A stretch of DNA of 64,000 nucleotides from an uncultured Chloroflexia bacterium (GCA_963847595.1 CAWKAJ010000001.1:759263-823262), one strand, 5' to 3'; numbered from the stretch's first letter, positions 60,263 through 64,000 are shown. The notes: a model not told the origin generated them from the sequence alone. Translations and numbers: made by a program.

Positions 60263-60390
60263 CGGTGCACTTCCTCCTCCTTCACCACACTCAACGCAGC
60301 CTCACCGGAAGTATCGGGCTGGCCACATTGCATTAGAAACAGATGCACCTAATCATACATTACATGTCAAGTTCAGAAAAGGAGGACAAA

Positions 60391-60660
60391 GCAATCTCCT
60401 CGTACTCGATAACGTTTCACATGTCATTGCGAGAAGTCCGCCTCTGGCGGACGACGAGGCAATCTCCCCGTACTCGATAACGTTTCACATGTCATTGCGA
60501 GGAGTCCCCTCTGGCGGACGACGTGGCAATCTCCCCGTACTCGATAACGTTTCACATGTCATTGCGAGGAGTCCCCTCTGGCGGATGACGTGGCAATCTC
60601 CTCGTACTCGATAACGTTTCACATGTCATTGCGAGAAATCCGCCTCTGGCGGATGCCACC
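60391..60660 (+). repeat. Tandem repeat, 4 x 67-68 bp
   Basis: Units start at 60391, 60459, 60526 and 60593. Unit: GCAATCTCCyCGTACTCGATAACGTTTCACATGTCATTGCGAGrAGTCC(G)CCTCTGGCGGAyGACGwG. Confidence 0.95.
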
Positions 60661-60949
60661 TATCAAGAAAATAGAAGACTTAGGCTTCTGTGTGTCATTC
60701 TGGGATGAGCAATGGCCACCGACAATAACACTAGAATCCGGTATCATAGTACTCGGAGTCGAACTTTGGGTCAAGCGACTCGCTGCCGTCGCTTTAGAGA
60801 ATAGTGTATTTCACGGCACAGAAAAGGTTAGCCCGCTACCTCGTTAGGCTAGCCTTCTTTGCCACCTTTCTCAGAGAACTCGCTTTATGAAATAGGCTCT
60901 ATTGTGACTTTCATGGGTTGCGGGTTGCCGCGCTCTTTAACCTGCTCTT

Positions 60950-61168
60950 TCACGGGGTAAGGACCAGGCTTCGCCTTGCGGGTTCCTTCTCCTCCTCTTT
61001 GCTAATCAGACCTGCCTTCCTGGCTGCACTGCAAGTATTGCTGTCATCATGAGTCAGGCCATTGTCATCAACAAAGATTATGGAGTTCGCCTTGAATAGC
61101 TTCTCTCTACTCCTGGCCGCATTCAGTCGCTGAAATCATTCCATAGCACCATCCTCTGTCTTATCCAT
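60950..61168 (-). pseudogene. Degenerate paralog of the small gene at 62460-62786 (in-frame TGA; the original start is frameshifted)
   Basis: MDKTEDGAME*FQRLNAARSREKLFKANSIIFVDDNGLTHDD...ARKAGLISKEEE aligns to MTEDGYMRLNAARDKEKALKDKPIVFVDDHGEVHDD...AREAGLLAKEKE. Confidence 0.65.
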
Positions 61169-61247
61169 GCCAAAAATTAGCCATTCGACATCGCTACCTC
61201 CTCTGACTCAGCATGAGTCAGCCCATGACACCAGCCCTTCTGTTTTT

Positions 61248-61275
61248 AGATTAACCCACTTTTTCGGTTTGTCAC
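61248..61275 (-). promoter_or_regulatory. Sigma70-like promoter module (GTGACA-N16-TAATCT) upstream of the degenerate small gene
   Basis: One of three copies of the same ~40-nt block. The others are at 62937-62964 and 63097-63124. Confidence 0.5.
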
Positions 61276-61418
61276 GTTCGAAACCTTTTTATTAGCGTGA
61301 ACGTATTGCATAATTTTCGTGAGTCACTGACCTGCAATAGTCGTACGGAACGTATTTATCAGTGACCTGTCGATACTAATTTATCATGAGTTGACAATGA
61401 CGAAAAAGAAGGAAGATT

Positions 61419-62523
61419 AGGCTTAGGAGGCCCACACGGATGGATGGGATATTTTGATGGGAATCGTGAACATCGTTCCTAGCCTACTCCTATCATTTGC
61501 TATGGCGGCCGGGCATCGTGACGAGGTTATGGTGTGATATCAGAAATTCTCCAGAAATTGAACGTGATGTCGTCCGTCTGTCCGTCCATTTGATATTTGA
61601 ACGATTTGGGCGAATTTGAACAGGCATTTCGGCGCATCACAGCTTCAGGGAACAACTATACCTGCCACATGGAGGAAACAGTGGGCTAATGGACTCGACT
61701 TTTGGACGTCGTAGCGACGTCGTAATTGAAGCTAAAAGTCCAACCGTCTGTTGACCATTTGAGCGGGTTTGCGGGCATGGTAAACGACATTTCGGCGGCC
61801 CCCACGTTCACGACGACTTTTTCGACTTTGGACTTTGGGGAGTGGAAAGTCCTAGGACTTTTCAGTTTCTACGTCCAAGTCGTGAAGTCGTCATTTGCCT
61901 ATTCTTTTAACATCTGGACGCTCCTGGACGGCGCTTTTTGGCGAACCACAGCACCCTGTTTGACATGGCCTAAGAACGCGTAAGGCTTAAAAGAAGAAGC
62001 CTACAATGGATGGATGGGCTATTTTAATGGGCATCGTGAACATCGTTGCCAGGCTGCCCCTATCATTTGCCATGGTGGCCGGGCATCGTGACGAGGTCAT
62101 GGTGTTATATCAGAAATTCTCCAGAAATTGAACGTGATTTCATCCGTCTGTCCGTCCATCTATCCCTTTGACATTTGAACGGATTTGGACGAATTTGAAC
62201 AGGCATTTCGGCGCACCACAGCTTCAGGGAACAACTATACCTTCCACATGGAGGAAATAGTGGGCTAATGGACTCGACTTTTGGACGTCGTAACGACGTC
62301 GTAATTGAAGCTAAAAGTCCAACCGCCTGTTGGCCATTTGAGCGGGTTTGCGGGCATGGTAAACGACATTTCGGCGGCCCCCACGTTCACGACGACTTTT
62401 TCGACTTTGGACTTTGGGGAGTCGAAAGTCCAGGACTTTTCAGGTTTCTATGTCCAAGTCTACCGCTCCATCCCTTTGGCATCTGGACGCTCCTGGACGG
62501 CGCATTTTGGCGGACCACAGCAG
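61419..62523 (+). repeat. Large tandem direct repeat, 2 copies of ~565 bp (61419-61982 and 61983-62523), apparently non-coding
   Basis: GGATGGATGGG anchors at 61438 and 62008 (570-bp period). About 90% identity with indels that break every ORF frame. Confidence 0.9.
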
Positions 62524-62786
62524 GTCGTTTGGCAAACCGCAGAAACTTGAAGGAAAATCGAGATGAGGACCGGCCCCTGGGCTTCCTTTTCCTTCGCCAG
62601 CAGTCCGGCTTCTCTGGCATCCGAGACGTTATGGACGTCGTCGTGGACTTCGCCATGGTCGTCAACAAAGACAATGGGTTTATCCTTGAGTGCCTTCTCT
62701 TTGTCCCTGGCCGCGTTGAGGCGCATGTAGCCGTCCTCGGTCATCTCCTCTTTCTTGTCTGTGCCCTGAATCATCCACGTTGCCAT
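62460..62786 (-). CDS. Small hypothetical protein (conserved part about 75 aa; the ORF tail runs into the large repeat)
   Basis: AAGGAGG RBS. A paralogous remnant lies at 60950-61168. No family recognised. Confidence 0.55.
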   Translation of the reverse strand: MATWMIQGTDKKEEMTEDGYMRLNAARDKEKALKDKPIVFVDDHGEVHDDVHNVSDAREAGLLAKEKEAQGPVLISIFLQVSAVCQTTCCGPPKCAVQERPDAKGMER

Positions 62787-62836
62787 GGTGGCCTCCTTGT
62801 GATATCACACTGAATATCACATAGCTTTGATTTATT

Positions 62837-63168
62837 CCTCCGGCGGCCCCCCGGACAAAAAGAAAGGGCTGGCCTAACTACCTGTCCGAGGAAGTGCCAC
62901 CCTTTTTTTAACTTGTATTTTTAGATCGGTACTTTTAGCTTAACCTACTTTTTGACGATGTCAAGCGACCTATTTTTGATATCAGGACCTTGTCTGCGCT
63001 GATATCAGCCTCCGGCGGCACTCCCGGGGCAAAAAGAAAGCGGCAGCTAAACTTCCTGCCCCAGGAAGTGCTGCCGCTTTTCTATCTTGTATTTTTAGAT
63101 TAACCCAGTTTTTCGACTTGTCAAGCGACCCGTTTTTGATATCAGGACCTTATCTGCGCTGATATCAG
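62837..63168 (+). repeat. Tandem duplication of a 160-172 bp module (hairpin + promoter-like block + paired TGATATCA palindromes)
   Basis: Module 1 at 62837-63008 and module 2 at 63009-63168. Hairpins at 62863-62908 and 63037-63080 carry compensatory stem changes. Confidence 0.85.
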
Positions 63169-63398
63169 GGCTGATATTATGGCTGATATCAGGGTCCTAT
63201 CTGCGCTGATATCATACTTGATATCAGGATCTTAACAGGGCTGATATCATGATATTTGGCTGAAATTTTACCACAAATTTTCCCACATTTTTATTCAAAA
63301 TGTGAAACTATTTTGTCAGCATTTTCACGGACATTTCAGCAGATTTTAGCTGAAAATTATTCTGATATCAGACTGATATCAGCGATTTTTATACTTTT

Positions 63399-63570
63399 CA
63401 TCCGTCCGCTATTTGAACAGATTTGGACTCTGCTGAACGGCGCATTTCGGCGAACCACAGCACCCTGTTTGACATGGCCTAAGAACGCGTAAGGCTTAAA
63501 AGAAGAGGCCTACAATGGATGGATAGGATATTTTGATGGGCATCGTCGACATCGCTCCCAGGCTGCCCCT
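63399..63570 (+). repeat. Partial third copy of the ~565-bp repeat (internally deleted; spans the end/start junction)
   Basis: ...CGGCGAACCACAGCACCCTGTTTGACATGGCCTAAGAACGCGTAAGGCTTAAAAGAAGAGGCCTACAATGGATGGATAGG... matches 61940-62070. Confidence 0.85.
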
Positions 63571-64000
63571 TGAGAAATTCTTGCAGCGGAACCCGGTTAA
63601 AGACTTCGACCAATTCGCACAGAGCCTTGAAAAGAAGGGGCTGCTAACTGAACCAGCGGTCGTGAGTCGGAGTCCTCGGTTTGGTACAACGAACAGGTAG
63701 GCGGGAAGCTGCTCAGTATCCTTTTCTCCAGGAACGAGTCTTTTATTCGTTGACTCCCAGGGAAAACCAGCCGTGCTGCCCTGGGCAGACCCGATAGCCG
63801 CCAGTCATCCTGAGTTCCGTTGACAAGGTTTTAACTGAATCTACCTCAATTCCCATATTTCCGAAGCTAACTATCACCAAAACTACGATTTTCAGCTTCA
63901 ATTGAAGAACTAGCTACTTCTTTTTATATACAAAAGGTACTTTTGTAAAGTATGCTGTTCACAGAGCTATGTTTCGAGAGTGCAAATAGCTTCAGCACAT

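Follow-up and report, generated by a model that had tools for sequence, protein, structure and literature searches.

A copy-number-variable array of helically phased direct repeats in the putative control region of a small integrative element of Dehalococcoidia-type bacteria

Several described systems come close to the repeat array discussed here. In phage Mu the operators O1-O3 lie between c and ner, plasmid R1 has a parC site with ten 11-bp iterons in two clusters, the crr of P4 consists of two 120-bp direct repeats each with iterons, and the origins of Staphylococcus aureus pathogenicity islands and phage-inducible chromosomal islands (SaPI/PICI) have iteron sets. An integrative element from a related host has also been described, IME1 of Dehalococcoides, 21-28 kb in size (~23 kb), with a XerCD-type tyrosine recombinase after a tRNA, a primase-helicase, a metallophosphoesterase-like large coding sequence, a pI-like ATPase and a terminal Cro/CI repressor; the main text of that paper does not contain the words 'repeat', 'intergenic' or 'origin of replication' (bioRxiv 10.64898/2026.09.15.751708). 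We have analysed a window of 64,000 nucleotides (nt), by which we mean the whole stretch of DNA under study, from an uncultured Chloroflexia bacterium (GCA_963847595.1, CAWKAJ010000001.1:759263-823262), in which an earlier note, made by eye on the sequence, had pointed out a non-coding tandem duplication at 61419-62523. Judged by its gene neighbourhood, this repeat is part of a divergent control region, or switch region, which belongs to a small mobile element integrated in the genomes of Dehalococcoidia-type bacteria. The reading which we favour, with moderate confidence, is that the repeat units are non-coding, copy-number-variable protein-binding arrays upstream of a rightward promoter in the control region of the element, multiplied and rearranged by unequal recombination.

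The tandem repeat of ~570 bp is confirmed, and so is its partial third copy (Table 1). Comparison of 60800-64000 with the whole window by blastn aligned 62008-62522 with 61438-61953 at 89.0% identity over 526 columns, and 63421-63570 with 61912-62061 at 90.7% over 150 nt. The latter match reproduces the end-to-start junction of copies 1 and 2, exactly as had been proposed, and represents a collapsed unit; no further unit copy was found elsewhere in the 64 kb. The same blocks were recovered by a repeat search, with spacings of 570-579 and 1509 nt, and the copy register of the units is displayed by a MAFFT alignment, while Tandem Repeats Finder missed the ~570-bp repeat because its longest period is 500. 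Five independent metagenome contigs, obtained from different samples, contain units at 85-95% identity, and since the units recur in independent assemblies with distinct junctions and arrangements, the repeat is not an assembly artefact, a possibility which the earlier note had left to be checked. Copies 1 and 2 differ from each other by ~11%, which is sufficient for separate assembly. They are not a fresh duplication; they belong to two old paralogous unit types, a and b, which stand apart from each other in one of the relatives (L096; relatives are numbered L001, L002 and so on).

The units are nested repeats. Four words of 10-11 nt (ATTTGAACGG, ATTTGGACGA, ATTTGAACAG and GCATTTCGGCG; TTTGRAC-type, consensus nTTTGRACGn) make up a cluster, each such cluster terminates in CATTTCGGCG-nACCACAGC, and three clusters (A, M and B), ~163 nt apart, make up the unit, giving twelve words per unit, all on the + strand. 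The orientation of the clusters is identical across all clusters in all sequences. The helical phasing of the words, suggested previously by eye, exceeds chance in several respects. TTTGRAC has 26 matches in the window, of which 11 lie within 61596-63428, all on the + strand, and the other 15 are spread over the remaining 62 kb, as against 14.8 expected by chance; the 22-nt cluster-core motif GCGCATTTYGGCGNACCACAGC (≤3 mismatches) has five matches, found only in the repeat region, with 0 expected; and within one unit the 4-mer autocorrelation has maxima at lag 10 (z 6.5-7.4) and at lag 163-164 (z 8-11.5), above the 95th percentile of shuffle maxima (6.2) in both cases. A unit contains the word CATTTYGGCG three times altogether (in clusters A, M and B) and not four times as counted before. 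Cluster M of one diverged copy, L001_c2, keeps the four-word pattern with a changed sequence. Two GACGTCGT words, 11 nt apart, both become GACGTCTT in L004, L001 and L002, and such a paired change fits recognition as direct repeats, although it could also stem from gene conversion. On the 3' side of cluster B one finds TTGACA, a possible -10, AAGAAGAAGCC or GAGGAGG, and then ATGGATGG, a segment which we interpret as a promoter-like site, a Shine-Dalgarno sequence and the beginning (19 codons) of a small gene, p73, named for its length in relative L001; all promoter assignments in this work are consensus matches only. The GC content of the units is 39-56% per 100 nt (~50% overall). A reading of the words as extracytoplasmic-function (ECF)-type promoters was considered by eye and dropped.

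The units are non-coding, as had been surmised. Stops are present in all six frames of every unit copy. Copies 1 and 2 have one frame of 80-85 codons in common, but with a frameshift between the two; in L004 this frame is interrupted by a stop, and in the diverged L001_c2 it encodes unrelated residues. Variable sites, 113 in number, are distributed over the codon phases as 42/41/30, without codon periodicity, the indels between copies measure 8, 1, 1 and 10 nt, and the open reading frames (ORFs) of the units have no matches in Pfam or PHROGs. The frame is thus broken differently in each copy, and no frame is conserved across copies and relatives. The argument made earlier from loss of frame through indels holds, while the accompanying statement that these ORFs start at TTG does not apply to ORF 62268-62813, which begins with ATG. 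A large structured RNA, which had been suggested by the hairpins, finds no support: the hairpins named in the earlier note are present in the sequence, but a covariance-model scan with Rfam 15 had no match at the gathering score, and relaxing the cutoff to E≤10 added nothing but noise, all of it outside the units. In folding energy one unit does not stand out from its shuffled versions (z -1.16 on the + strand and +0.07 on the - strand). RNAalifold on five copies returned a covariation term of +5.08, that is a penalty, with 5 compensatory pairs and many broken ones; the power of these folding and covariation tests is limited by the 85-95% identity of the copies. The hairpin GACGTCG-taa-CGACGTC reads GACGTCTTGTCGACGTCTT in L004, L001 and L002, where both changes are G to T and non-compensatory for the stem. 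Similarity searches against phage and plasmid DNA gave no match, and the cumulative GC skew shows no turn within the window.

What kind of DNA carries these units then? The ORF at 62460-62786 (minus strand), here called small108, has close homologues, and contigs L001 and L002 are ~90-95% identical to the window in this DNA. A complete element, 90-95% identical to the window over the control region, is present in L096. Going outward, the genes of its first arm code for a paralog of small108, a protein of 316 aa, a Cro/CI-like protein (HTH_3), a Prim-Pol+PriCT_1 primase with relatives among the primase-polymerases of phages and plasmids, and finally a tyrosine integrase. The second arm is the operon p73-p173-p224-p348 (in L096 p96(p73)-p175-p224-p343), and the units and three small108 paralogs lie between the two arms. 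For the window the right arm continues past the window end and was read from L001, where p73 is followed by genes of 173, 224 and 348 aa. These three genes (L001 1789-4376, L003 6832-9419, L004 8539-11041) have their own conserved promoter/leader of ~320 nt, which is retained at all p173 loci, with a core of ~55 nt common even to distant ones, and it is at this leader (63903..64000) that the homology with L003 joins. The order p173-p224-p348 is syntenic in ~40 fetched loci, often with a tyrosine integrase, and is present in hundreds of sediment metagenome contigs. The family of p348 comprises >200 metagenome proteins. It has members in Dehalococcoidia and some Desulfobacterales metagenome-assembled genomes, and an examination of 600 pattern matches confirmed at least 289 metagenome stretches; no viral relatives of p348 were found in IMG/VR. 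None of the three proteins has a Pfam or PHROG assignment except for a winged helix in p348, which contains a MarR-like winged helix-turn-helix (HTH), a second HTH and four invariant cysteines (Cys4 motif). We considered p348 as a Rep-like initiator or a sigma factor and rejected both: the AlphaFold model has a predicted local distance difference test score (pLDDT) of 60, and Foldseek returned only MarR-type winged helices and one weak SigB match, with no Rep-like or otherwise recognisable fold. Residues 1-72 of small108 define a family of 16 representatives with 40-85% identity and variable tails, without a match in Pfam or PHROGs.

The chromosomal surroundings vary between relatives. The right arm adjoins SBF in L001 and L003 and an epimerase in L004, and the shared segment in the window adjoins an acetyl-CoA synthetase-like gene. 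The integrase of L003 sits beside a tRNA-Lys, and comparison of the right end of L003 with the 3' end of this tRNA-Lys, made to look for att sites, revealed no repeat beyond a common 10-nt word; the window contains no tRNA or tmRNA. A hairpin after p348 that resembles a tRNA T arm is simply a terminator. The window element is without the integrase/primase arm, and its homology with L004 and L101 begins at ~60700, beside chromosomal genes. The array is therefore found between divergent or convergent genes of an element which has an integrase and occupies varied chromosomal sites, as expected for a control region.

The number and order of units differ from one relative to the next. L102 and L103 have no units: the window segment 61036-61491 is joined there directly to 63519-63982, and P1, the first rightward promoter, leads into an intact p73 with no cluster in between. 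L006 has a similar simple intergenic region without a cluster array. One unit (A-M-B-P2, P2 being the promoter-like site after cluster B) lies directly 5' of p77 in L004; L096 has two full, non-adjacent units, an a-type by small108 and a b-type by p73; the window has a b-type and an a-type unit side by side plus the collapsed unit; L001 has at least three adjacent units, with the contig end falling inside the repeat; and L101 shows another order again, with two motifs inverted. Compared with L102 the window has 2.08 kb extra (61492-63569), flanked by direct repeats of the p73 stub. The left copy of this bracketing repeat is the P1/p73-stub segment 61391..61491, collinear with L102 8584-9035 at 90%, where it runs straight into full-length p73, and the right copy is the collapsed unit. 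Copy 1 is of the same sequence type as L096_b, the unit directly 5' of p73 in L096, and the junction of an a-type unit with small108 is kept in four contigs (window, L001, L002 and L096). The single cluster of the collapsed unit is A-like in its left half and B-like in its right half, a hybrid which recombination between A and B predicts. Close relatives thus display both the differing copy numbers and the hybrid junctions by which a copy-number-variable tandem repeat is recognised, and sequence comparison indicates that the repeat is a hypervariable, copy-number-variable region resulting from unequal homologous recombination, within itself and between related elements. Upstream of the p73 start there are no clusters in L102, L006 and at window P1, one in window copy 3, and three in L004, L096_b and window copy 1; the array is therefore a dispensable upstream element of the p73 promoter. 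The words are absent upstream of p173 in ~20 more distant loci, so that there is no deep comparative set, and exact scans for the motifs found nothing in collections of genomes, viruses and metagenome contigs. We also considered by eye whether the 22-nt motif might be a site of Xer/dif-like or other site-specific recombination, and rejected this: the motif has no inverted arms, and the window/L102 and B'-small108 breakpoints fall in the p73 stub or just past the P2 -10-like region, not in the motif.

What could the clusters be doing? The presence of zero, one or three clusters 5' of p73, the phased repeats by a -35-like hexamer, several HTH proteins and operator-like palindromes together argue for binding-site arrays, and since the units belong to a mobile element, a reading of the iteron or operator type is reasonable. 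The comparisons show how the repeat is built, that it is non-coding and lacks an RNA signal, that it lies in a mobile element and that its copy number varies; that a protein binds it, which protein this would be and how transcription would be affected we infer. In the mechanism that we propose, the clusters would act as cooperative binding sites, possibly with additional bending by phased T-tracts, for a DNA-binding protein encoded by the element, the candidates being p348 (multi-HTH), the left-arm Cro/CI-like HTH protein, p73 and small108. By way of the cluster sites, the rightward promoter would be adjusted in its activity relative to the convergent/divergent promoters of the small genes; the rightward operon p73-p173-p224-p348 is headed by p73. 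The tandem arrangement would have arisen via unequal homologous recombination between repeated pieces (p73 stubs, clusters) of related elements. Each additional copy would bring further promoters and binding sites, as well as antisense transcription across small108 that would end at the 62866-62909 terminator.

Several points weigh against this proposal. The protein that would bind the clusters is represented by candidates only. Conservation cannot separate function from recent common descent, because the unit-bearing sequences are 85-95% identical, and the array is absent from some relatives and so is possibly dispensable debris. The window element itself, being without the integrase/primase arm, may be a decaying remnant. 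The enrichment of words in one unit is modest (7-8 vs 5.2 in mononucleotide shuffles), and the promoter-consensus scan gave 8 sites vs 4.1 expected.

Could the clusters serve replication instead? They might be origin iterons, or a P4 crr-like replication/incompatibility region, for a Prim-Pol replicase acting after excision, with the extra units in a copy-control/handcuffing role, and this we regard as a doubtful possibility. The Prim-Pol+PriCT_1 gene of the complete element in L096, with its phage and plasmid relatives, is a few kb from the units; the control region is the only repeat-dense part of that element, and the examined part of its left arm (L096 6380-9060, including a 735-nt intergenic gap) has no comparable array; the repeats are direct, in one orientation and helically phased; and an AT-rich stretch (63200-63399, 31-33% GC) lies between the palindrome array and the cluster of the collapsed unit (cluster C), outside the units. 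However, the units, at ~50% GC, contain no AT-rich unwinding element, the DnaA box TTATCCACA (≤1 mismatch) is missing from 60.7-64 kb, and the words have 10-11 nt compared to the 17-22 nt usual for iterons. Moreover, neither the shared segment nor the adjacent called genes of L004 and the window, both of which have units, include a primase; in L102 and L006 the p73 promoter module comes without any cluster; and p348 shows no Rep-like fold. Of what an iteron origin should show, direct repeats in one orientation are thus present, while an adjoining AT-rich unwinding element and/or DnaA boxes are not. Array copy number differs between otherwise near-identical strains, and as a tentative extension, with a rather low chance of being right, the array could be the origin/incompatibility determinant of undescribed Prim-Pol integrative elements of Dehalococcoidia, or a DNA decoy for the regulator of this family, its copy number tuning a switch between integration and replication. 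We find it highly improbable that the clusters are a centromere-like partition site of the R1 parC type, with 11-bp iterons flanking a promoter and a small adaptor, e.g. small108, bound to them: 10-11-bp direct repeats are indeed clustered by promoters and small genes adjoin them, but a ParMRC-like centromere has partition NTPase and adaptor genes as neighbours, no ParA, ParM or TubZ-type gene is found in the gene tables of L001, L003, L004, L096, L098, L100, L101 and L102, and the element is integrated in the chromosome. Of the interpretation offered in the earlier note, the non-coding, helically phased direct repeats of protein-binding type and the link to mobile DNA have therefore stood, the large structured RNA has not, and neither origin nor centromere is established.

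A different kind of explanation is that the array has no present function and is debris of homologous recombination, or of tandem accretion and deletion, between elements with a common small-gene/p73 module. The arrangement is different in every contig (window, L001, L004, L096 and L101), in the window the small gene at 60880-61190 is broken and p73 is frame-shifted, both being pseudogenes, and the integrase/primase arm is missing, and the 61492-63569 block, bracketed by p73-stub direct repeats, is absent from L102. The order of four phased words per cluster and three clusters per unit is, however, not easily produced by accident and is kept in the diverged L001_c2 cluster, and the junction between a-type units and small108 is conserved in four contigs, so we consider the debris explanation unlikely. 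Transcription of the unit from P1/P2 as a long structured non-coding RNA or leader would be in line with the promoter-like sites and short stub ORF 5' of each unit, with the local hairpins, and with the lack of a terminator inside the units, the first one on the + strand being at 62866-62909; given no Rfam match, the fold and covariation values and the loss of hairpin stems in relatives, it is very unlikely. Finally, one might take the repeat for an artefact of assembly or for a protein-coding gene in decay because L001 ends inside the repeat and gene callers have put 147-aa ORFs on the L096 units, but this is hardly credible in view of units at 85-95% identity with distinct junctions in independent assemblies, the ~11% difference between copies and the lack of any conserved frame.

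The region holds other signals besides the units (Table 1). The leftward promoter-like motif of the small genes occurs in three window copies (61237, 62926 and 63086) and also 5' of small108-family genes in the distant relatives L098, L100 and L006, and L098 also has a leader hairpin like that of the window small genes. Small proteins of L096 map to window 61186-60998 at 79% (tblastn), in the region of the small108-family pseudogene. The palindrome CTGATATCAG (≤1 mismatch) has 11 of its 13 window matches in 61534-63382 as against 2.2 expected, L098 has CGATATCG palindromes at the equivalent position, and the array probably represents operator sites of a dimeric repressor. The hairpin at 63035-63078 has z -3.9 on the - strand and -4.6 on the + strand, and that at 62866-62909, followed by a T7 run, has z -2.6 on the + strand. 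The two modules in 62837-63168 that hold these hairpins resemble a bidirectional terminator, and a leader or small RNA of ~70 nt is possible on the minus strand.

Table 1. Features of the control region between 60.7 and 64 kb (window coordinates)
Feature	Position	Strand	Description
Left edge of segment common to relatives	~60690-60700	-	Homology onset; window 60700-60959 vs L004 7037-7295 94%, vs L101 7867-8125 95%
small108-family pseudogene	60880-61190; N-terminal domain ~60959-61186	-	Stop and frameshift in three-frame translation
C-terminal tail of small108-family pseudogene	60880-60960	-	Like 52-aa gene of L004
Leftward promoter-like motif of small genes	61237..61274	-	TTGACA, ~15-17-nt spacer, TAAKCT-like -10, by eye
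Rightward promoter P1 and first p73 codons (promoter-like)	61391..61491	+	TTGACA 61391-61396, TTAGGCTTAGGAGG 61417-61430, ATG 61440
Unit copy 1, b-type	61427..61995	+	p73 N-terminal stub, X segment, clusters A, M, B, P2, Shine-Dalgarno
Copy-1 clusters	A 61590-61650; M 61752-61812; B 61905-61955	+	P2 TTGACA 61960-61965
Unit copy 2, a-type	61996..62535	+	ATG 62006 and 41-codon stub ORF, X, clusters A, M, B'; 89% identical to copy 1
Copy-2 clusters	A 62163-62225; M 62331-62391; B' 62474-62525	+	
Promoter-like TTGGCA-18-GAAAAT	62529-62558	+	After copy 2, directed antisense into small108
small108 gene	62541..62786; annotated ORF extends to 62460	-	~72-aa conserved N-terminal domain; ORF extension antisense through cluster B'
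Two tandem modules, 76% identical	62837-63008 and 63009-63168	-	Each a hairpin terminator with flanking A/T runs and leftward promoter motif
10-bp palindrome CTGATATCAG array	62976..63382 (also 61534)	.	Spacing mostly 23 nt
Collapsed third unit	63399..63570	+	One hybrid cluster 63405-63465, P2 TTGACA 63468-63473, Shine-Dalgarno, ATG 63515
p73 gene	63515..63752	+	Conserved N-terminal ~45 aa intact
Start of p173-p224-p348 operon promoter/leader	63903..64000	+	Operon past window end

The C-terminal half of p73 in the window is in the same frame as in L096 and in a different one from L001, L004 and L102, and for this half (window 63533-63752) two alternative frames are seen among close relatives. 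In L006 (788-1366) it is broken by an in-frame TAG and an insert of ~350 nt, and the DNA from the p73 C-terminus into the leader is ~86% identical between L006 and L004 (7976-8271). Conservation of the p73 C-terminus may sit at the level of DNA or RNA instead of protein.

Some further observations concern the cargo and the surroundings of these elements. In L101 (16677-18174) and L102 (11715-15246) the p73 promoter module heads an operon with Prok_Ub, Prok-E2, Prok-JAB and ThiF (E1-like), a set for ubiquitin-like conjugation in bacteria, of a type that has been linked to phage defence, and L102 additionally has a large serine recombinase. In L003 (4320-6280), and also in L009, L010 and L027, the small-gene/p73 module is replaced by an integrase and a protein of 457 aa that has HTH_23/HTH_28 at its N-terminus. 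This protein is overlapped by one of 199 aa, which faintly matches AAA_22, and the two together recall IstA/IstB or an initiator and its loader. Between the acetyl-CoA synthetase-like gene and the element edge there are four tandem copies of 67-68 nt (60373-60653), 93-100% identical, each with the hairpin GTCCGCC-TCT-GGCGGAC and a CATTGCGAG...GGCAATCTC motif; single copies of this unit are found 5' of the SBF gene in L001 and L003, and it is probably a genomic repeat resembling repetitive extragenic palindromes or miniature inverted-repeat transposable elements (REP/MITE-like). Across the whole window TTATCCACA (≤1 mismatch) occurs 23 times vs 11.6 in shuffles, spread over 3-59 kb, with none in the repeat region.

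Mobile elements with repeat arrays in their control regions are well known, and the finding is therefore a useful annotation and no surprise. The element family itself seems to have been previously unannotated. Dehalococcoidia are relevant to bioremediation and their mobile elements have been described only lately, and the region marks the switch of a small integrative element family in such bacteria. If the arrays bind a regulator or an initiator, they would offer a handle for finding the DNA-binding protein of the element, promoters or vectors for a group with few genetic tools, and a means of reading strain-level variation.

By our comparison the array is not assignable to the Mu, R1 parC or P4/SaPI families, although it has something in common with each. 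As in phage Mu, clustered sites of ~11 bp are situated in a divergent control region between leftward and rightward early promoters of an integrated element; here, however, there is no Mu-like repressor or transposase, the words are direct and in one orientation, the clusters are tandemly amplified and binding is putative. With R1 parC the array shares helically phased 10-11-bp direct repeats clustered by a promoter, but the relatives have no parM/parR-type genes, and the units here, of which there are many, each have three clusters ~163 nt apart. The P4 ori/crr and SaPI/PICI systems are likewise integrative elements with their own primase and long direct repeats bearing short iterons. They differ in that the array here is unlinked to the primase gene, is absent from related elements and has units without an AT-rich core, and the primase is a Prim-Pol and not of the P4 alpha type. 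From IME1 the element differs, by description only, in its size (~12 kb of locus was read in the complete relative, its outer ends being unmapped), in the Prim-Pol and in p173-p224-p348. What it shares with IME1 is the general plan of a Dehalococcoidia integrative element, with a tyrosine recombinase by a tRNA (here the L003 integrase by tRNA-Lys), a primase and a Cro/CI-type repressor.

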